From Aliivibrio fischeri ES114 (GTDB lineage: Bacteria; Pseudomonadota; Gammaproteobacteria; Enterobacterales; Vibrionaceae), in NCBI RefSeq assembly GCF_000011805.1, contig NC_006840.2: 32,000 bases of DNA. The stretch is one strand, 5' to 3'. Positions 1,033 to 21,246 of this stretch are shown here, piece by piece (position 1 is the first letter of the stretch; each line of letters opens with the position of its first letter). Under the pieces are notes generated by a model. The model saw only the letters and a list, made by a program, of their open reading frames with translations. It did not search any database and was not told the origin of the DNA. Position numbers and translations under genes: made by a program.

Positions 1033-1064
1033 AGGGACTAGGAAGAGCAGGGACTAGGGACTGG
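1033..1064. repeat. Purine-rich 'G-arm' repeat (agggactag ga agagc agggactag ggactgg) just after the wza stop
   Basis: Read directly: agggactaggaagagcagggactagggactgg. It is the reverse-complement type of the ctagtccct / ctcgtccct motifs at 1595-1603, 1758-1780, 1864-1872, 2496-2590 and 19945-20005. Confidence 0.85.
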
Positions 1065-1184
1065 TAAAAGCAAAAGCTATAAGAATAATAATAGATTTAA
1101 ATAATTAAGGCTTAAAAAAACAGACCTTAATTAACAATAAAATAATAAGAAACAAAAAAGCACAATAATCACGGATGATTAGGT

Positions 1185-1535
1185 ATGCGATTTAAAGAAC
1201 TGGATGTATGGAAGAGAAGTTTTAAAGTATCGGTTTATATTTGTAAATCAATGAGATCTTGTAAAGATCTTGGCTTTAAAGACCAAATCTGTCGCTCATC
1301 AGTTTCTGTACCATCGAATATCGCAGAAGGATCAGAAAGAGGCTCAAATAAAGATAATATTCGCTTTCTTTTCTATGCAAAAGGCTCGTGCGCAGAGTTA
1401 CTAACTCAAGTTTTACTCGCAACAGAAATTGGCTATTTAAAAAAAGATGAAGTCAGTAATCTGATTATTGAATTAGAAGAAATCAATAAAATGATTGCAG
1501 GCTACATTAGATACTTACAGAGAACTAGGGGCTAG
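1185..1535 (+). CDS. Four-helix-bundle protein (23S rRNA intervening-sequence protein / Avd-like family)
   Basis: 116 aa with family hallmarks as I know them (TIGR02436 / PF05635 type): N-terminal FKELDVWKRS, central RSSVSVPSNIAEGSERGS, then FLFYAKGSCAELLTQVLLA. Size and predicted all-helical character fit. The stop codon TAG (1533-1535) lies inside a CTAG repeat motif. Confidence 0.85.
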   Translation: MRFKELDVWKRSFKVSVYICKSMRSCKDLGFKDQICRSSVSVPSNIAEGSERGSNKDNIRFLFYAKGSCAELLTQVLLATEIGYLKKDEVSNLIIELEEINKMIAGYIRYLQRTRG

Positions 1536-1889
1536 TAAACGCTAGCTTAAAGGGACGAGTATAAGCATTTTAAGCTCTTACTCGCCCCTTAAACCTAGTC
1601 CCTCGACTCTAATCAAAACGGATAGATTGGCTACTATCACGTAAATTGCACTTCAGCACTTACTCGCCTCTAAAGTCTATCCTTTAAGATTAATATTTAA
1701 ACAAGACGGATAGATTGACTCTCCATAGCGCAAATTGCTTCTACGCTTTTGCTCTGTCTAGTCCTTAAAATCTAGTCCCTCATTTCTAATTTCAAAATTC
1801 AAATCAAGACGGATAGGTCTAAACCAGATGTAAGACATTTAAGCTCTTACTCGCCCCTAAAACCTAGTCCCTCGAAACTAATTTAATCC
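1526..1889. repeat. Degenerate repeat region between the four-helix-bundle ORF and wzb
   Basis: A 13/16-bp hairpin pairs agggacgagtataagc (1551-1566) with gctcttactcgcccct (1574-1589). A 47-48 bp direct repeat occurs at 1566-1613 and 1836-1882 (cattt(t)aagctcttactcgcccct.aaacctagtccctcga..ctaat), with about 4 differences. Three units begin with acggatag at 1618, 1706 and 1809 (periods 88 and 103 bp). The region holds 7 CTAG sites. Confidence 0.9.
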
Positions 1890-2614: not shown

Positions 2615-4777
2615 ATGTCACAAGCAATCAACTCTACCCGTGATACCTCTACCTCTGATGAAATCGATTTAGCAAAACTGTTTGGTCAGCTAATTGATGG
2701 TCGTTGGCTTATTCTTTCTATTACCACTTTATTTGCCATTGCGGGTATTGCGTTCGCACTTTTATCGACACCCATTTATAAAGCCGATGCCCTTGTTCAA
2801 GTAGAGCAAAAAAGCAATGGGGGCATGTCAGCACTTGTGGGCGATATGGGGGAAATGTTCGCCTCTGAATCATCATCAACCACTGAAATTGAGATCATCA
2901 AATCACGTATGATCTTAGGTGATACTGTTGATGCCTTGAACCTAACGACCATCGCCTCTCCACAATACATGCCTATTATTGGCAAAGGGTTATCTCGTTT
3001 AATGGGTGAAGAGAAAGCGATTAAAGTAAGTCGCTTTGATATTCCAAGATACGTAGATAAGCCTAACTTTACTCTAGTTTTAGATAACGCCGAACAAGGC
3101 ACTTATACCTTATTTGATGGACAAGAGCGAAAAATCTTAACAGGTAAAGTGGGTGTACTTGCAGATAAAAACGATTACCGCGTATTTGTTATGCAATTAG
3201 AAGGTAACACGGGCGATGTATTTGATGTGTCTAAAATTTCTCGTTTTGATGCAATTTTAGCACTGCAACAATCTTTATCTATTAGTGAAAAAGGTAAGCA
3301 ATCCGGCGTATTACAGTTTTCTCTAGAAGGTGAAAACAAAGCACAAATAGAAGCGATTATTAACGATGTAAGTCAAAATTACTTCTTACAAAACATTGCC
3401 CGCAACAGTGCAGAAGCTGAGCAAAGTCTTGAATTCTTGCAAGCTCAACTTCCTGCCATTAAAGATAAGCTGACTACTTCAGAAAATGTATTAAACGACT
3501 TTAGATTAGAGCGTAAATCCGTTGATTTAAGCTTAGAAGCTCGCTCAGCATTAGATGTGCTAGTAAAGTTAGAAGCGCAATTAAATGAACTGACTTTTAA
3601 AGAGAGTGAAATTAGCCAACGCTTTACTAAAGATCACCCAGCTTACAAATCATTAATTGATAAACGTAAAGTTTTACTGGCTGAGAAAGATCGTTTAAAC
3701 GGACAAGTGCAAAAGCTGCCAAAAACCCAACGTGAAGTACTGCGTATGCAGCGTGATGTAGAGCTAAACCAAGAGATCTACATTCAGCTACTGAACAAAA
3801 CTCAAGAATTAAACATAGTGAAAGCCGGTACTGTAGGCAACGTGCGTATTTTAGATACCGCGCAGGCTTATACTCATGCAGTAAAACCGAAAAAACCGTT
3901 AATTGTGGTATTAGCAACTTTATTAGGTGGCATGCTAAGTGTGGCAATCGTGCTACTTAAAGCTGCATTCCACCGTGGGGTAGAAAACCCAGATGAGATT
4001 GAAGCCTTAGGTATTCCTGTTTATGCCAGTATTCCAAAATCAAACTGGCAAGAAAAGCTAGATATTCGCTACAACAAAAAGAAAGTGAAACACTTAGAGA
4101 CGTTATTAGCAGAATCAAACCCTGCTGATTTATCCATTGAAGCACTGCGTGGCCTGCGTACCAGTATGCACTTTGCCATGATGGAAGCCAAAAACAACGT
4201 AGTGATGATCACCGGTCCTGCGCCAAACATTGGTAAATCTTTTGTAGCAGTAAACTTTGCTGCGGTTATTGCCAAAACAGGTCAAAAAGTATTGGTTGTG
4301 GATGCCGACATGCGTAAAGGCTATATGCAACGTTACTTTGGTATGAGGTGGGATAATGGTTTATCAGACTACTTATCAGGTAAATTAAGTTTAGAAGAGT
4401 CTATCCAAAAATCAGAAGTACCAAACTTAGATGTACTAACTCGTGGGCAAGTGCCGCCAAACCCATCTGAACTATTAATGACAAAACGTTTTAGTGATTT
4501 TATTGATTGGGCATCAGCTAATTACGATTTAGTGCTGATTGATACACCGCCAGTACTAGCGGTAACTGACCCAAGCATTGTAGGGGCACTAGCTGGCACA
4601 ACATTAATGGTTGGGCGTTTTGACCAAACGTCAGTTAAAGAAATTGATGTAGCAAGGCATAGATTTGAACAAGCAGGGATAGAAGTGAAAGGCTTTATCT
4701 TGAATGCGGTAGAGAAGAAAGCAAGTAGCACATACGGTTATGGTTACTATAACTACAGTTATGATAGCGATAAATAA
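2615..4777 (+). CDS. wzc: Polysaccharide co-polymerase / tyrosine autokinase Wzc (BY-kinase)
   Basis: 720 aa. Two TM segments (LILSITTLFAIAGIAFALL; LIVVLATLLGGMLSVAIVLL) flank a long coiled-coil periplasmic region. The C-terminal kinase has Walker A GPAPNIGKS, Walker A' VLVVDADMRKG, Walker B LVLIDTPP and the tyrosine-rich tail STYGYGYYNYSYDSDK. Confidence 0.95.
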   Translation: MSQAINSTRDTSTSDEIDLAKLFGQLIDGRWLILSITTLFAIAGIAFALLSTPIYKADALVQVEQKSNGGMSALVGDMGEMFASESSSTTEIEIIKSRMILGDTVDALNLTTIASPQYMPIIGKGLSRLMGEEKAIKVSRFDIPRYVDKPNFTLVLDNAEQGTYTLFDGQERKILTGKVGVLADKNDYRVFVMQLEGNTGDVFDVSKISRFDAILALQQSLSISEKGKQSGVLQFSLEGENKAQIEAIINDVSQNYFLQNIARNSAEAEQSLEFLQAQLPAIKDKLTTSENVLNDFRLERKSVDLSLEARSALDVLVKLEAQLNELTFKESEISQRFTKDHPAYKSLIDKRKVLLAEKDRLNGQVQKLPKTQREVLRMQRDVELNQEIYIQLLNKTQELNIVKAGTVGNVRILDTAQAYTHAVKPKKPLIVVLATLLGGMLSVAIVLLKAAFHRGVENPDEIEALGIPVYASIPKSNWQEKLDIRYNKKKVKHLETLLAESNPADLSIEALRGLRTSMHFAMMEAKNNVVMITGPAPNIGKSFVAVNFAAVIAKTGQKVLVVDADMRKGYMQRYFGMRWDNGLSDYLSGKLSLEESIQKSEVPNLDVLTRGQVPPNPSELLMTKRFSDFIDWASANYDLVLIDTPPVLAVTDPSIVGALAGTTLMVGRFDQTSVKEIDVARHRFEQAGIEVKGFILNAVEKKASSTYGYGYYNYSYDSDK

Positions 4778-5953: not shown

Positions 5954-6852
5954 TGAAAGGTATTGTACTTGCTGGTGGCTCCGGTACGCGTTTGTATCCA
6001 CTGACTCGTGGTGTATCAAAACAGCTTTTGCCTATTTACGATAAGCCAATGGTGTTCTACCCAATCTCGACCTTAATGCTTGCGGGTATTAAAGACATTT
6101 TAATTATTACAACACCTGAAGATAATGCTGGCTTTAAGCGTTTGTTGGGTGATGGCTCTGATTTTGGTATTAACCTTGAATATGCTATTCAACCAAGTCC
6201 TGATGGTTTAGCGCAAGCGTTTATTATTGGTGAAGAATTCATTGGTGATGACAGTGTCTGTTTAGTGCTTGGTGATAATATTTTCTATGGTCAGTCTTTT
6301 GGTAGAACCCTACGTAAGGCTGCTGCACGTGATTATGGAGCGTCAGTTTTTGGTTATCATGTAAAAGATCCTGAGCGTTTTGGTGTAGTTGAATTTGATA
6401 AAGATTATAAAGCATTGAGTATCGAAGAGAAGCCTGAAAATCCAAAATCAAATTGGGCTGTTACTGGGTTATATTTTTATGATAACCGTGTAGTGAGCTT
6501 TGCAAAGAAAGTTGAACCGTCTCATCGAGGGGAGCTGGAGATTACATCTATAAATCAGATGTATTTAAATGATGGTTCATTAAATGTTGAGCTATTAGGT
6601 CGTGGTTTTGCGTGGTTAGATACTGGTACTCACGAAAGTTTGCATGAAGCGTCGTCATTTGTTCAAACTATTGAAAATGTACAAGGTTTGAAAGTGGCTT
6701 GCCTTGAAGAAATTGCATGGTCACAAGGGTGGTTAAGTGATGAAAAAGTATATGAAATAGCAAAACCAATGCTTAAGAATGACTATGGGAAATATTTAGT
6801 TTCATTACTGGATAATGAAACGTTACGCAGTTCATTACAGGCGAATAAATAA
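5953..6852 (+). CDS. rfbA: Glucose-1-phosphate thymidylyltransferase
   Basis: 299 aa: [33 protein letters not shown], [18 protein letters not shown]. These are RmlA signatures. Confidence 0.95.
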
Positions 6853-17436: not shown

Positions 17437-18369
17437 ATGGCTAGTTCAATTGATATTGCAAAACAAGTAATTCAAACCGAAATTGAAGGGTTGGATTATA
17501 TGGCAAAAAGATTAGGTTCTGAATTTGAGGTGGCGATAAATGCCATCATTAATACAAAAGGTCGCACTATAATTTGTGGGATGGGAAAATCAGGAATTAT
17601 CGGAAAAAAAATAGCAGCGTCTTTTGCTAGTACTGGTACTCCTAGTTTCTTTATGCATCCTGGAGAGGCTTTTCATGGCGATCTTGGAATGGTGAAACCA
17701 GAAGATGTATTTATTGCTATATCGAATTCGGGTGAAACTGATGAAGTTTTAAAACTGTTACCTTTCTTACGTGATAACGGTAACTTTGTTATTGCTATAA
17801 CAGGTAAAGAAAACTCTACACTTGCTACAAATTCTCACTGTCATTTAGATATTTCTGTGCCTAAAGAGGCGTGTCCTTTGCAATTGGCACCAACATCGTC
17901 AACAACAGCAACTCTTGTTATGGGGGATGCCTTAACGGTTGCTTTGATGGATGTTCGTGAATTCCAACCTGAAAACTTTGCTCGTTTTCACCCAGGAGGT
18001 AGCTTAGGTCGACGATTATTGTCAAAAGTTCAAGATGAAATGTTTTCTGACAATATCCCAAGTGTCGCTTCAGATGCAGATTTCACTTCTATCATTCATA
18101 AAATATCCTCAAGTCATCTAGGACTTACATTGGTTAATTTAAAGGATGATTCTTTAGCTATCATCACTGATGGTGACTTGCGCCGAGCTATGGAATCAAA
18201 GGGGAGAGACGCTTTTGATTTGGTAGCAAAAGATATTGCATCAATTAATCCTGCCTCTATATCACCTGAGTCTAATATACAAAAAGCTTACGAGATCATG
18301 GAGAGTAAAGGGATAACATCATTGATTGTTGTTGAAAGTAATTCTGTTGTTGGTATTTTGAAAAAGTAA
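17437..18369 (+). CDS. kdsD: Arabinose-5-phosphate isomerase (KdsD/KpsF/GutQ family)
   Basis: 310 aa. The SIS domain has GMGKSGIIGKKIAASFASTGTPSFFMHPGEAFHGDLG and SNSGET. Two C-terminal CBS-like repeats follow. The start abuts the kdsB stop. Confidence 0.9.
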   Translation: MASSIDIAKQVIQTEIEGLDYMAKRLGSEFEVAINAIINTKGRTIICGMGKSGIIGKKIAASFASTGTPSFFMHPGEAFHGDLGMVKPEDVFIAISNSGETDEVLKLLPFLRDNGNFVIAITGKENSTLATNSHCHLDISVPKEACPLQLAPTSSTTATLVMGDALTVALMDVREFQPENFARFHPGGSLGRRLLSKVQDEMFSDNIPSVASDADFTSIIHKISSSHLGLTLVNLKDDSLAIITDGDLRRAMESKGRDAFDLVAKDIASINPASISPESNIQKAYEIMESKGITSLIVVESNSVVGILKK

Positions 18370-18408
18370 TTTAATTATTTATATAACTAATAAATAACTG
18401 AATAACTA

Positions 18409-18437
18409 TTGATAATTTGCTCTATTTTTGTACAATA
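18409..18437 (+). promoter_or_regulatory. Near-consensus sigma70-type promoter (TTGATA-N17-TACAAT)
   Basis: ttgata at 18409-18414, an exact 17-bp spacer, then tacaat at 18432-18437. Each hexamer matches consensus at 5/6 positions. It lies in the 245-bp kdsD-wecA gap and is not experimentally supported. Confidence 0.45.
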
Positions 18438-18441
18438 CCGC

Positions 18442-18556
18442 ACGTTGTTTTTCTTTGGCTAAAAAACAAACGTGGCTCGTGTTTTATTTGTATCGTTACA
18501 TTGATAACTGAATAAAATGCGAGCAAATAGACCACGTAGCAACTGCGTGGTTTTAT
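18442..18556 (+). ncRNA. Candidate small RNA or terminator-containing 5' leader of wecA
   Basis: Downstream of the promoter is a 12-bp bulged hairpin (18442-18453 pairs with 18463-18475; loop ctttggcta). An intrinsic-terminator-like hairpin follows: accacgta (18531-18538) pairs with tgcgtggt (18544-18551), loop gcaac, then TTTTA (18551-18556, sharing the last stem T). No ORF of 60 aa or more lies here. Confidence 0.3.
18531..18556 (+). terminator. Rho-independent terminator-like hairpin upstream of wecA
   Basis: An 8-bp stem (accacgta / tgcgtggt, one G.U) with a 5-nt loop, followed directly by ttttatg. Confidence 0.55.
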
Positions 18557-18614
18557 GCAATACCCATCTATATATAATTAAAAGATAACTACATTCCTAA
18601 AAGGAAGTTTATTC

Positions 18615-19706
18615 ATGATAAACGCATATCTGTTTGTGTTTCTCGTCTCATTTATCAGTTTATTTATTATGCGCAAAGTGGCTAAGCGCATTGGCTTGGT
18701 AGATAAACCTAATGAGCGAAAACATCATAAAGGAGTCATTCCATTAATTGGTGGTATTTCTATATTCACTACATTATGTATTGGTTTGCTTCTTTTCCTC
18801 CCTGTTACTGAAACTTTGCTTATGTATTTAGCATGTGCAGCGGTATTAGTGGTGCTAGGGGCCTTTGATGATTACTTTGATGTGTCATTTAAAATTAGGT
18901 TAATTGTTCAAACTGGCATTTCTCTGGTTATCATTTTTGCTGGTGGACACAGTTTACATAATTTAGGTTTCTTAATGGGCAGTGAGACCATCATGTTGTC
19001 TTCTGCGGTAAGTGGTTTTATTACCATTTTAGGTGTGATAGGGGCGATTAATGCCTTTAATATGGTGGATGGTATTGATGGCTTATTAGGTGGGTTAGCA
19101 TCGGTTACTTTTGCTGCGCTAGCTACCGTGTTCTATTACAGTGGTAATGATTATCTTGCTCATGTGTGCGGGTTAATCGTTATTGCTATGGTGCCATACA
19201 TTATGCTTAACCTCGGTTTTCCTTTGGGGCGTCGTTTTAAAGTCTTTATGGGTGATGCCGGCAGTATGTTTATTGGCTTTACGGTGGTTTGGATGCTTAT
19301 TCGTGGTTCACAAGAGCCAGCCGTTATTGCATTTAAACCGGTAACCGCATTATGGTTAATTGCAATTCCTCTTATGGATATGGCAACCATTATGATCCGT
19401 CGTGTTCGTAAGGGCCAATCTCCATTCAAACCAGATCGTGAGCATTTACATCATATTTGCCAGCGTTTGGGTTTATCTTCTTATATGACGCTTTTCTTAA
19501 TTTGTACTGTTGCTTTAATTTGCGCTTTCTTCGGCATTTGGGCTGATTTAAACGGCGTGAGTGAGTCGGTCATGTTCTTTAGTTTCTTGGCGCTATTTGG
19601 CGTGTACTTTATGACTATCAGCTACATCTGGCGTATCACAACATTTGTGCATAAGCTGTTTGGTAAGCGTATGTCGGTACAGCTTCAAGCTGAGATAAGC
19701 AAATAA
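18615..19706 (+). CDS. wecA: Undecaprenyl-phosphate alpha-N-acetylglucosaminyl-1-phosphate transferase (WecA/MraY family initiating transferase)
   Basis: 363 aa polytopic membrane protein: DxPNERKxH, GAFDDxxD, NAFNMVDGIDGL, FMGDAGSMFIGF, HLHH. These are the WecA/Rfe family motifs. Confidence 0.9.
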   Translation: MINAYLFVFLVSFISLFIMRKVAKRIGLVDKPNERKHHKGVIPLIGGISIFTTLCIGLLLFLPVTETLLMYLACAAVLVVLGAFDDYFDVSFKIRLIVQTGISLVIIFAGGHSLHNLGFLMGSETIMLSSAVSGFITILGVIGAINAFNMVDGIDGLLGGLASVTFAALATVFYYSGNDYLAHVCGLIVIAMVPYIMLNLGFPLGRRFKVFMGDAGSMFIGFTVVWMLIRGSQEPAVIAFKPVTALWLIAIPLMDMATIMIRRVRKGQSPFKPDREHLHHICQRLGLSSYMTLFLICTVALICAFFGIWADLNGVSESVMFFSFLALFGVYFMTISYIWRITTFVHKLFGKRMSVQLQAEISK

Positions 19707-19745
19707 TGGCGTTTTGCTAAATATATAGATAATCAATACACAAAA

Positions 19746-19779
19746 GCGGATATAACTTAAGGTTGTATCCGCTTTTTTT
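19746..19779 (+). terminator. Rho-independent terminator of wecA / end of unit 1
   Basis: gcggatataac (19746-19756) pairs with gttgtatccgc (19762-19772): 11 bp with one G.U and loop ttaag. A T7 run follows at 19773-19779, 40 nt after the wecA stop. Confidence 0.85.
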
Positions 19780-19791
19780 GTCTTATACTCT

Positions 19792-19898
19792 CTAGGTGCT
19801 AGGTGCTAGGTGCTAGGTGCTAGGTGCTAGGTGCTAGGTGCTAGGTGCTAGGTGCTAGGTGCTAGGTGCTAGGTGCTAGGTGCTAGATGCTAGGTGCT
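19792..19898. repeat. Heptanucleotide tandem array (AGGTGCT / CTAGGTG) x15
   Basis: Counted directly: 15 contiguous 7-bp units from 19794 to 19898, of which 14 are identical and one is a variant (agatgct, 19885-19891). A partial ct precedes them at 19792-19793. The same word appears once in the wzb-wzc gap (aggtgctag, 2381-2389). Confidence 0.98.
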
Positions 19899-20033
19899 AC
19901 TCTCTCTTTAGCTCAGTCCTTGCTTTTACTCGCCCCTTAACTCTCGTCCCTTAGCTCTCATCTCTGCTCTTCCTCGTCCTTAGTCCCTTTACTTATAGTC
20001 CCTTATTTTCTCACCCCTCCCTCAACCTCTCAT
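19899..20033. repeat. Pyrimidine-rich 'C-arm' repeat tract (ctcgcccct / ctcgtccct / tagtccct motifs)
   Basis: About four-fifths C/T on the + strand by my count. It contains cttttactcgcccctta (19923-19939), ctctcgtccctta (19941-19953), ctgctcttcctcgtccttagtccctttac (19964-19992) and tatagtccctta (19994-20005). These are the same motif family as 1574-1603, 1843-1872 and 2475-2590. Confidence 0.85.
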
Positions 20034-20220
20034 ATTCCACTTATAAATTTCAGTCTTTAGTGTGTTTGCCGATATATGGGCTTACTATGTAGCCAATCGT
20101 TTATTGGTCTTGCCTTTGAGTACGTTGCAAAGATGCTAACTTATTGGGCTTATGATAAAATATAAGCATATATAAACAGTTTAAATCATCAAACGCCTTG
20201 GGTATGCGTTATAACCTATG

Positions 20221-20232
20221 GGCGGTAGCGTA
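20221..20232 (+). promoter_or_regulatory. ops element (RfaH loading site) within a JUMPstart-like sequence
   Basis: ggcggtagcgta matches the ops core GGCGGTAG plus the following CGT of the E. coli/Salmonella consensus GGCGGTAGCGTG. It lies 49 nt upstream of the first gene of unit 2, in an untranslated leader, the usual position in polysaccharide operons. Confidence 0.75.
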
Positions 20233-20280
20233 CCTAATTGTTGTTTTTAAACCATAAACAAGAAAGTTAAGTAATTCTTT

Positions 20281-21246
20281 ATGCAATATAAAATTGAAGT
20301 TTTGCCAGCTGGTGTTCATTATCAGAGTGAAGATAATCTTCTTGATGATGCCCTTTCTCAAAATATTCCCTTAGAACATAGTTGTAAGACTGGGGATTGT
20401 GGTGCTTGTAGTGCAGAGATAATTACAGGAAATGTAGAAAATGTGCATGGAAACGTAGTTACTCAAGGCGAAATTCTTACTTGTCAATCAAAAGCGTTAT
20501 CTGATGTTGTTTTAAAAGCAAATTATTACCCTGAGTTGGTGGATATAAAACAACAAACGATTCCGTGTAAAGTAGCCAATGTGATTCGAGTTACTGACGA
20601 TATTATTATTCTTAAATTCCGTTTTCCACCAACGGTTAAGTTTGATTACCTTCCGGGTCAATATGTTGATTTGAGCTATAAAGGCATTAAGCGAAGTTAC
20701 TCTATTGCAAATGCAAAGTTAGATAGCAAAGAATTAGAATTACATATTCGAAAAGTGCCTAATGGACAAATGTCTGAATTGATTTTTGGTGATGTGCAAC
20801 TAAATCAATTAATGAGGATGGAAGGTCCAAAAGGGACGTTTTTTGTTCGTAATAATAATAAGCCACTTCTTTTACTCGCAACAGGTACTGGTATTGCCCC
20901 AATTAAGGCTATAGTTGAAGAGCTAATTGTAAAAGAAGATAAACGTAATGTTTATATTTACTGGGGTATGCAATATGAAGCGGAATTATATTGTACAGAA
21001 CTAGCTCAATATGCTGAAGAATATGAGCATATTCAATTCTCTCCTGTTTTGTCAAAAGAGCAAGATTGGCAAGGACATAAAGGTTATGTTCAAGATGCTG
21101 TTAATCATGATTTTGATTCATTAGAAAACGTTGAAGTATATGCGTGTGGTTCATTGAGGATGATCGATGAAGCTAAAGTATTATTTATGAATAAGCAATT
21201 ACCATCAGATTCCTTTCACTCTGATGCATTTACCCCTGCAAAATAA
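20281..21246 (+). CDS. ddhD: CDP-6-deoxy-L-threo-D-glycero-4-hexulose-3-dehydrase reductase (E3; [2Fe-2S] + FNR-like flavin/NAD domains)
   Basis: 321 aa. The N-terminal plant-type ferredoxin has the pattern CKTGDCGACSAE...LTCQS. The FNR-like domain has RSYSIAN and a GTGIAP nucleotide-binding motif. It sits directly before ddhA-ddhB-ddhC. Confidence 0.88.
   Translation: MQYKIEVLPAGVHYQSEDNLLDDALSQNIPLEHSCKTGDCGACSAEIITGNVENVHGNVVTQGEILTCQSKALSDVVLKANYYPELVDIKQQTIPCKVANVIRVTDDIIILKFRFPPTVKFDYLPGQYVDLSYKGIKRSYSIANAKLDSKELELHIRKVPNGQMSELIFGDVQLNQLMRMEGPKGTFFVRNNNKPLLLLATGTGIAPIKAIVEELIVKEDKRNVYIYWGMQYEAELYCTELAQYAEEYEHIQFSPVLSKEQDWQGHKGYVQDAVNHDFDSLENVEVYACGSLRMIDEAKVLFMNKQLPSDSFHSDAFTPAK

Follow-up and report, generated by a model that had tools for sequence, protein, structure and literature searches.

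The DNA analyzed here, referred to below as the window, is a 32,000-nt stretch of Aliivibrio fischeri ES114 (contig NC_006840.2, assembly GCF_000011805.1). The element under study (1027-1889; coordinates are those of the window, and its genes and arms are given on the + strand) consists of a small gene, VF_0163, which is bracketed by complementary arms of short repeats within a capsule operon. The first 5 kb of the window contain wza (38-1024), the 116-aa open reading frame (ORF) of VF_0163 (1185-1535), wzb (1890-2330) and wzc (2615-4777); rml genes and a long polysaccharide cluster are found downstream of wzc. The product of wza (VF_0162 gfcE in ES114) is an outer-membrane polysaccharide export protein (Pfam Poly_export, SLBB and Wza_C), while wzb/etp encodes a low-molecular-weight phosphotyrosine phosphatase (Pfam LMWPc) and wzc a tyrosine autokinase (Pfam Wzz, WZC_N, GNVR and AAA_31). 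According to RNA-seq of ES114, VF_0163 is transcribed, and its expression changes together with that of VF_0162 (wza), VF_0164 (etp) and VF_0165 (wzc) (PMC7468203). A promoter and terminator scan identified no promoter-like or terminator-like sites on the + strand between 900 and 2700, and no Rfam matches, rRNA families included, were obtained in the window at gathering thresholds or at E<=1.

A first-pass annotation of the sequence had placed the ORF in the family that occurs within 23S rRNA intervening sequences (IVSs) and includes Avd, the accessory protein of diversity-generating retroelements (DGRs). Searches with hidden Markov models agree with this assignment: the ORF scores above the cut-offs of PF05635 (E=1.7e-32, 112.3 bits, cut-off 33.8), TIGR02436 (E=4.5e-33, 113.7 bits, cut-off 24) and NF008912 (E=8.8e-53, 177.3 bits, cut-off 124), and VF_0163 can be described as an S23p/Avd-like four-helix-bundle protein. 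The family motifs W9, SVPSNIAEG and AKGS..E form invariant columns in an alignment of 24 sequences, and the closest solved relative, by sequence match, is a Xanthomonas protein (PDB 2GSC, E=2.8e-13). The exact protein is AAW84658.1 of A. fischeri ES114, followed by the gene for AAW84659.1, and is indexed in 256 collection blocks. It has a basic pI of 9.25, and comparison with A. logei indicates purifying selection (pN 0.085, pS 0.57). To our knowledge, PF05635/TIGR02436 is among the most common “hypothetical” families and has no known role outside of DGRs. No decayed copies of the gene were detected elsewhere in the window by tblastn with 24 family members as queries.

Repeat arms around VF_0163 and their predicted pairing

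The annotation had described purine arms on the 5' side of the ORF and complementary pyrimidine arms on its 3' side, and the arms were located at these places. The 5' arm (1027-1078) is rich in G and A (G 36.5%, C 11.5%) and consists of the units AGGGACTAG(G) and AAGAGCAG, with the heptamer GGGACTA present twice at 1050-1063. It is followed by a conserved A-rich leader (1079-1184), near-invariant in 10 A. fischeri strains, which contains a small hairpin at ~1103-1132, present in both the minimum free energy (MFE) and the centroid structure, and a GGAT Shine-Dalgarno-like motif before the ATG. Downstream, folding predicts two local hairpins within 1527-1592, one of which (1530-1547) overlaps the stop codon and the other of which (1550-1590) joins GGGACGAG with CTCGCCCC; the region 1530-1895 folds with a z-score of -4.5. 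Three C/T-rich 3' arms, namely arm a (1574-1607; CTCTTACTCGCCCCTTAAACCTAGTCCCTCG), arm b (1744-1784) and arm c (1836-1878), each form a predicted duplex with the 5' arm. A degenerate copy (1649-1683; repeat family D3) forms a weak one (z -1.5). The sequence GGGACTAG occurs at 1034 and 1050 and its complement CTAGTCCC at 1595, 1772, 1864, 2496, 2531, 2566 and 2580. The stop codon, too, lies within a CTAG repeat word as had been noted, the TAG at 1533-1535 being part of AGGGGCTAG, a variant word (family D6). In the whole window, the repeat words are limited to four intergenic spacers (1025-1184, 1536-1889, 2331-2614 and 19707-20280), in which CTAG is enriched ~14-fold (32 in 1,372 nt vs 51 in the other 30,628 nt).

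Folding of 1020-1895 pairs 1033-1064 with 1758-1780 (arm b) and 1843-1872 (arm c) in both the MFE and the centroid structure (z -6.2, from 20 shuffles only). In separate duplex predictions, the 5' arm pairs with 1740-1792 (-42.9, z -4.6), 1830-1885 (-32.7, z -4.0) and 1560-1612 (-33.4, z -2.7), and coding-sequence controls yield z ~0. The proposal that the arms pair in silico across the ORF thus holds for this species, with 42-80 ORF-spanning pairs per strain in 10 A. fischeri strains; in Vibrio vulnificus and V. navarrensis, such pairing is partial (26-37 pairs).

Two ORF-less copies of the arm pair had been proposed. The first, at 2331-2614 in the wzb-wzc spacer, is genuine: a purine half (2336-2410; G 34.7%, C 9.3%) precedes a pyrimidine half (2411-2592; C 28.6%, G 8.2%) of tandem 51- and 35-nt units with TAGTCCC heptamers, as delineated by Tandem Repeats Finder (TRF), and the copy folds with a z-score of -2.7. 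The second, at 19792-20033, stands only in part, as a heptamer array is indeed followed by C-rich units, but no pairing of the two is predicted. It comprises (CTAGGTG)x15.4 (19792-19899; TRF, 98% matches), located between an intrinsic terminator and the ops element that precedes the following operon, and C/T-rich units akin to the 3' arms (19900-20035; C 39.7%, G 7.4%; CTCGCCCCTTAACT, CTCGTCCCTTAG). Direct copies of pyrimidine units are found on both sides of wzb, with families D1 and D2 at 1562-1882 and 2412-2592.

Among the 10 A. fischeri strains, gain or loss of units changes the length of the spacer between wza and the VF_0163 gene (HP in the following; 160-267 nt) and of the wzb-wzc spacer (172-362 nt), and the HP-wzb spacer is steady at 353-356 nt. 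The upstream units, variable in number, are composites of 16-28 nt that include the heptamer GGGACTA and do not form a pure heptamer array. Within the HP-wzb spacer, ~3.5 tandem copies of a ~90-nt unit span 1610-1830, each with the motif (A/G)ACGGATAG(A/G)T (1617-1629, 1705-1717 and 1808-1818). The sequence CGGATAGATTG, with a chance expectation of 0.02 in the window, is found again in A. logei and also within an insert in allele B of V. navarrensis that resembles a miniature inverted-repeat transposable element (MITE). In the A. fischeri assembly GCA_009727525.1 (locus L001, ~6340-6410), a run of N coincides exactly with the repeats of the wzb-wzc spacer; such arrays therefore break short-read assemblies.

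Farther downstream, the intrinsic terminator at ~19742-19780 (stem GCGGATA/TATCCGC followed by T7) ends the gene of a GT4-family glycosyltransferase (18615-19706), and an ops/JUMPstart element (GGCGGTAGCGT, 20221-20231) precedes a second operon that begins at 20281. Placed between terminator and ops site, the 7-nt array could make expression of this operon phase-variable. A 245-nt AT-rich spacer (18370-18614) between a SIS/CBS-domain gene (17437-18369) and the GT4 gene is free of repeat words.

Orthologous loci and flanking arrays across bacteria

The locus is an orthologue of the “HP/Wzd + R regions” of the V. vulnificus group-1 capsule operon, which had not been recognized in the first-pass annotation. 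V. vulnificus HP is 57-58% identical to VF_0163, belongs to the same Pfam family and occupies the same position in the order wza-HP-wzb-wzc. Its YJ016 homologue-cluster member is BAC93102.1, taken here as VV0338, and one source uses the name “Wzd” for one member. The V. vulnificus spacers contain the identical 18-mer AGGGACTAGGAAGAGCAG, followed by CTTCCCTAG-type complements, and the same gene order with GGGACKAG / CTMGTCCC and AAGAGCAG / CTGCTCTT words is found in both V. vulnificus and V. navarrensis. Synteny extends to A. logei, V. navarrensis, Photobacterium lipolyticum, Photobacterium nomapromontoriensis (which lacks wzb) and Grimontia hollisae, and the position of the gene is identical in 10 A. 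fischeri assemblies and six other Vibrionaceae species. In A. logei and the two Photobacterium species, the layout is the same and the words have drifted; P. lipolyticum (GAGTAGCGAG / CTCGAAACTCG) retains the purine-then-pyrimidine order. In P. nomapromontoriensis (locus L017, 3393-3760), the gene is followed directly by wzc after a 366-nt spacer of 4-5 tandem ~75-nt units, and this arrangement may represent a natural wzb deletion akin to the TR2 variants of V. vulnificus. In P. damselae, the gene is situated in the wzb-wzc spacer between (ACGAGAAT)n and (CTCGATAA)x5-9, and the wza-wzb spacer is gene-less, yet includes (CACCTAG)n, which is complementary to the heptamer of the window, as well as purine units. 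Distant homologues in Colwellia and Psychromonas lie in other polysaccharide clusters and again show purine units followed by their complements. A side observation concerns Colwellia echini (locus L021, 507-1331), in which a nucleotidyltransferase/HepT-like toxin-antitoxin pair follows wzc upstream of ugd and a four-helix-bundle gene.

It had further been asked whether homologous genes elsewhere are flanked by inverted arms, and complementary flanks were found in both of two samples. The first was drawn without selection from one-genome-per-species contigs (80 loci, 72 usable, with 459 ORFs of the same loci as controls), and the second consisted of 72 metagenome loci and was independent of the first. 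Flank complementarity was scored by alignment. In the genome sample, the median score between upstream and downstream flanks was 36.5 vs 24 in controls (Mann-Whitney p=5e-18), and half of the loci (36/72) exceeded the control 95th percentile. Inverted similarity of the flanks was greater than direct similarity in 55 vs 13 loci under strict Watson-Crick scoring, and in 58 vs 14 loci of the metagenome sample. Arrays with a period of 7 nt occurred upstream of the gene in 36/72 and downstream in 33/72 genome loci, as compared with 26/459 and 32/459 controls; the corresponding numbers in the metagenome sample were 40/72 and 34/72. Periods of 8 and 9 nt were the next most common in the genome sample. 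Examples include (TCGCAAC)x20, (AACCTAG)x22 and (GGACCCA)x40. A consistent order of the arms was also apparent: GC skew was positive upstream and negative downstream in 49 genome loci and reversed in 3, and the G-rich arm came first in 50 metagenome loci vs 0.

Several explanations of the arms and their words were considered. G-quadruplex formation as a general cause of G-rich arms would fit GGG words only and fails for (TCGCAAC)n and (AACCTAG)n, and a 7-nt unit containing TAG that provides stop codons in three frames would fit CTAG words and fails for (GGACCCA)n; both were rejected. A speculative reason for the G-rich-first order is that a C-rich, G-poor arm would constitute an exposed Rho loading site if it were transcribed first.

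In 54/73 loci, both neighboring genes are co-directional with the homologue, at gaps of ~80-90 nt, and certain junctions recur: downstream of rplM-rpsI (10 loci), cysD|cysN (8 loci, three phyla), rmlB|rmlA (8), metK|ahcY (7), tdh|kbl (3) and nrdB|nrdA (1). The cysD|cysN junction is occupied in Gammaproteobacteria and in two metagenome-assembled genomes, one of Opitutales and one of Geopsychrobacteraceae (L040, L044, L055, L064, L071, L077, L090 and L107), and the proteins of four copies compared (L040, L044, L064 and L077) are only 48-56% identical. This recurrence reflects either a favored site or movement of cysDN together with the insert. Short tandem arrays of 7-9 nt are also present in 23/147 other spacers within 4 kb of the gene (L023-L102), and thus seem to cluster around it beyond its own flanks. 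In the literature searched, which leaves out most subscription journals, no description of a general flanking-repeat rule was found, an absence that is not proof of novelty.

The repeat word was found to change with the protein subtype. Pairs of loci with unrelated surroundings share 4.7 flank 7-mers, the chance level, and this number increases to 14.8 when their proteins are at least 65% identical. (AACCTAG)n arrays, for example, accompany both a Colwellia copy in a polysaccharide cluster and a P. shioyasakiensis copy that precedes a gene read by eye as cysC, the two proteins being 69% identical. GGACCCA/CCCAGAA heptamers go with the Grimontia-type protein at two sites, namely wza|wzb and a position before a gene read by eye as epmC; the Grimontia copy at the former and the Photobacterium copy at the latter are 67% identical. 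Words are likewise shared by the cysD|cysN copy of Psychrosphaera and a Pseudoalteromonas prydzensis copy located before a suhB-like gene, with proteins that are 79% identical. At the wza|wzb site of V. navarrensis, two alleles exist: in one, GGGACKAG words occur with a V. vulnificus-type protein, and in the other, a Grimontia-type protein is combined with heptamers of the form (GAACCYA)n and with an array, (CCATAGGA)x6, similar to the allele-1 octamer of V. vulnificus. The words of all spacers of the locus, including ORF-less ones, switch along with the protein subtype. Judged from sequence comparison, this co-variation fits a protein that is matched to its own repeats. In the HP-wzb spacer of V. 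navarrensis (locus L103, 2944-3342), the (GAACCYA)n array is interrupted by a unique segment of ~230 nt whose ends are perfect inverted repeats of 20 bp (CAGGGAAAAATCATGAACAT), and this segment resembles a small MITE inserted into the array.

A proposed duplex-processing module and competing explanations

We consider it about an even chance (roughly 0.5) that 1027-1889 is one copy of a widespread and largely undescribed operon-spacer module, in which a PF05635 gene is preceded by a G-rich arm and followed by its C-rich complement, and whose transcribed arms form a duplex that serves as a substrate of RNase III and a binding site of the protein. As part of this explanation, the module was most likely inherited with the capsule/exopolysaccharide (EPS) operon throughout the Vibrionaceae. 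It would be transcribed as part of the operon, as is indirectly suggested by co-regulation and by the lack of a promoter or terminator motif of its own. The arms and the ORF-less arrays of the neighboring spacers are then predicted to fold into long imperfect duplexes. By analogy with the 23S IVSs and hmw1A of Haemophilus influenzae, we infer that RNase III would cut these duplexes and thereby split the operon mRNA into wza, HP, wzb and wzc pieces. The basic and probably pentameric protein might bind its own repeats, as Avd biology and the co-variation of word and subtype suggest. As DNA, the arrays are unstable and differ in copy number between strains, and recombination between the direct copies that flank wzb could delete this gene and give rise to phase-locked acapsular variants, as is reported for V. 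vulnificus in a review (PMC7247339). This combination of RNase III cleavage and protein binding on a transcribed duplex is favored because of the precedents set by the Coxiella IVS, hmw1A and Avd, which are compared with the locus below.

Several observations weigh against this proposal. The 5' arm is predicted to pair more strongly with the wzb-wzc spacer (-54.5, z -6.7) than with the 3' arms of the ORF itself, and the arms are therefore a promiscuous family that is not dedicated to the ORF. Only 0-5 ORF-spanning pairs are predicted in A. logei and P. lipolyticum, each V. vulnificus spacer carries both arms, and the copy at 19792-20035 folds no better than shuffled sequences (z +2.7). Selection on the sense RNA should tolerate G·U pairs more than A·C mismatches; sense-strand G·U pairing was, however, no better than antisense (64 vs 81 of 154 loci, sign test p=0.18), and the complementarity could thus be maintained by processes acting on the DNA, or be what neutral decay has left of once-perfect repeats. 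“G-rich upstream, C-rich downstream” had also been considered as a polarity relative to the gene, which was rejected, as the layout is unchanged by reverse complementation. Because it reads alike on both strands, a topology is preferred and not a strand, and the order of the arms is no proof of a function in the own transcript. Both samples were drawn with two peptide patterns, and the layout is therefore established for the S23p-like subfamily only and not for DGR Avd. Finally, among 18 homologous loci tested, no rRNA-embedded copy and only one tRNA was found, so that it is the Coxiella paper that provides the connection to true IVSs.

It is possible, though we hold this view with less conviction, that the repeats are DNA-level contingency sequences which destabilize capsule genes through slippage and recombination, and that the four-helix-bundle gene is an unlinked passenger. 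Recombination between the R regions that flank wzb has been proposed as the cause of wzb deletions and of phase-locked translucent variants in V. vulnificus (Chatzidaki-Livanis 2006, reviewed in PMC7247339), and wzb deletion and capsule phase variation are the accepted role of the repeats according to this review. The direct pyrimidine-unit copies on both sides of wzb in the window, the strain-dependent number of units, the adjoining HP and wzc genes of P. nomapromontoriensis and the negative outcome of the G·U comparison would all be in keeping with such a role. However, arrays also flank the gene in operons without a phase-variable phenotype (cysD|cysN, metK|ahcY, rmlB|rmlA and downstream of rplM-rpsI), and the arms around the gene are inverted, an arrangement that does not delete a gene by simple recombination. 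In addition, the repeat word accompanies the protein subtype to unrelated sites, so that the gene is more than an unlinked passenger.

A dedicated regulator of capsule/EPS production, which would bind the arrays in the wza-wzb-wzc transcript or DNA and set the levels of wzb and wzc, appears unlikely. Its conserved position in seven Vibrionaceae species, co-regulation with the locus (PMC7468203), basic charge and purifying selection would be expected of such a protein, as would the joint change of protein subtype and words in all V. navarrensis spacers, ORF-less ones included. An influence of the ORF on the capsule, which the annotation had envisaged, is at odds with transposon sequencing (Tn-seq) of V. 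vulnificus, where the homologue VV0338 was dispensable: it was classified as “Neutral,” with 92% of 26 TA sites hit, and the list of genes essential in human serum includes VV0337, VV0339 and VV0340 (wza, wzb and wzc), but not VV0338 (PMC6037467). Because VV0338 tolerates transposons and is absent from this list, a role in capsule production is unlikely, and the protein itself is probably not needed for making capsule. Furthermore, the gene-plus-array module occurs in unrelated operons as well, and its role is therefore not capsule-specific.

An active mobile element in the style of a bacterial “foldback” transposon, with autonomous ORF-bearing copies, non-autonomous ORF-less copies and protein-mediated movement, is considered improbable. 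The annotation had compared the locus to such an element on account of one occupied and several empty copies, and this idea has a real basis because the P. damselae gene lies in a spacer that is empty in the window, meaning that different genera have the gene in different spacers. Closely related proteins at different sites with common flank words (the Grimontia/Photobacterium, Psychrosphaera/Pseudoalteromonas and Colwellia/P. shioyasakiensis pairs described above), the arrays in 23/147 nearby spacers and the occupation of cysD|cysN in three phyla point in the same direction. Active transposition is, however, not supported. No transposase, integrase or reverse transcriptase was found in the loci examined, and neither target-site duplications, sharp element ends nor signs of recent movement were seen. 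A polymorphism for presence or absence between strains, as might have been anticipated, was not observed, since none of the 10 A. fischeri assemblies differs in the location of the gene, which is syntenic across the Vibrionaceae. Within the 32-kb window, the repeat words are limited to four spacers of one locus and the tblastn search yielded no decayed gene copies. Similarly, the view of the locus as an IVS “transplanted” into the operon implies a direction of transfer, and nothing found shows one. We know of no member of the PF05635 family that cuts or joins DNA.

That low-complexity purine and pyrimidine tracts lie by chance near a small hypothetical gene is very improbable, as the low complexity of the spacers and the copy at 19780-20045, which folds no better than shuffles, are set against the 14-fold enrichment of CTAG, duplex z-scores down to -6.7 with coding controls at ~0, an identical 18-mer common to the V. 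vulnificus spacers and a pattern that was replicated in two independent 72-locus samples.

Comparison with known systems

Foldback transposons of eukaryotes and bacterial MITEs possess long inverted arms of short tandem units and exist as ORF-bearing and ORF-less copies. The likeness of the locus to these elements is one of form only, as it lacks a transposase and target-site duplications and its copies in the window are found at one locus. With the DGR protein Avd, VF_0163 shares a homologous four-helix-bundle fold and a basic character; Avd is a positively charged pentamer, and a DGR study sought Avd-binding RNA stem-loops downstream of the template repeat (TR). A DGR as such was rejected: no reverse transcriptase (RT) domain was present among the annotated neighbors in 10 A. 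fischeri and 10 related loci, the window contains no long repeat pair, and there is neither a pair of TR and variable repeat (VR) nor a target gene, nor does anything suggest mutagenic retrohoming.

The closest counterpart is the HP + R-region arrangement of V. vulnificus, of which the A. fischeri locus is a new member. Both are alike in gene order, in CTAG-containing words (GGGACTAGGAAGAGCAG / CTTCCCTAG) and in the presence of repeats on both sides of wzb. According to the review, allele-2 repeats of V. vulnificus follow (A/C)CTAG(G/A)A(A/C), with an extra R region between wza and HP (PMC7247339), and its two alleles vary in HP and repeat word together, as do those of V. navarrensis. In V. 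vulnificus, every spacer contains a purine and a pyrimidine half, whereas the wza-HP spacer of A. fischeri has purine units only, whose partners therefore lie beyond the ORF. The review treats the repeats as direct repeats and recombination substrates only and mentions no inverted layout, protein family or IVS parallel (PMC7247339).

In the 5'-untranslated region (UTR) of H. influenzae hmw1A, the transcript of an (ATCTTTC)n array forms a hairpin with a G-rich arm, this hairpin is cleaved by RNase III, and changes in repeat number require both RNase III and transcription (PMC12721329, 2025). The A. fischeri locus resembles this system in its variable copy number and its vicinity to genes for a surface structure. 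As for a heptamer array that pairs with a complementary arm, the wzb-wzc spacer folds with a z-score of -2.7, and the true heptamer array at 19792-19899 is not predicted to fold with its C-rich neighbor (z +2.7). The hmw1A hairpin, however, encloses no protein gene, has the pyrimidine-rich repeat as its left arm, i.e., in the opposite order, and is a single promoter-proximal site, whereas the arrays described here occupy operon spacers.

The resemblance to an ORF-bearing rRNA IVS, from which the first-pass annotation had started, proved to be real, in that mutually complementary arrays of short tandem repeats enclose homologues of the gene in many phyla, and it is supported by comparative evidence at the sequence level. 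In Coxiella burnetii, the 23S IVS contains an S23p ORF and ends in a terminal inverted-repeat stem of 28 bp, at which RNase III cleaves; the ORF is preceded by tandem GACAGAT heptamers, two or three depending on the strain (PMC4990558). The IVSs of C. burnetii and Leptospira share with the A. fischeri locus the protein family, inverted repeats around the ORF, with a stem that is predicted in silico in A. fischeri, and a host transcription unit, and the upstream heptamers of Coxiella have their parallel in the pure heptamer arrays that flank many homologues of VF_0163. Differences concern the host, which is helix 25 or 45 of the 23S rRNA in the one case and a protein-coding operon with wza and wzb as neighbors in the other, as well as the size (~430 nt for the IVS, ~860 nt with several 3' arms here) and the state of the gene, as S23p in Coxiella is decaying and probably not made, whereas VF_0163 is under purifying selection.

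Tentatively, S23p-type genes with complementary, mostly 7-nt arms of which the G-rich one comes first might constitute one widespread class of operon-embedded elements, with the 23S IVSs as its first-noticed members. The protein would recognize its own word and maintain or spread it, and the element would colonize co-transcribed junctions (wza|wzb, cysD|cysN, rmlB|rmlA, metK|ahcY, tdh|kbl and rRNA) across phyla without a known transposase. Three things that have been treated separately, namely ORF-bearing 23S IVSs, the phase-variation repeats of V. vulnificus and orphan four-helix-bundle genes, are linked by the comparisons made here. A single anatomical rule fits all three: a gene with a G-rich arm before it and a C-rich complement after it, usually of 7-nt period, situated between operon partners. 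In practical terms, the arrays break assemblies and mark sites of likely capsule-gene loss. For the protein family, the rule suggests a testable job, the binding or processing of its own repeat duplex, for which VF_0163 of A. fischeri ES114 offers a tractable model.

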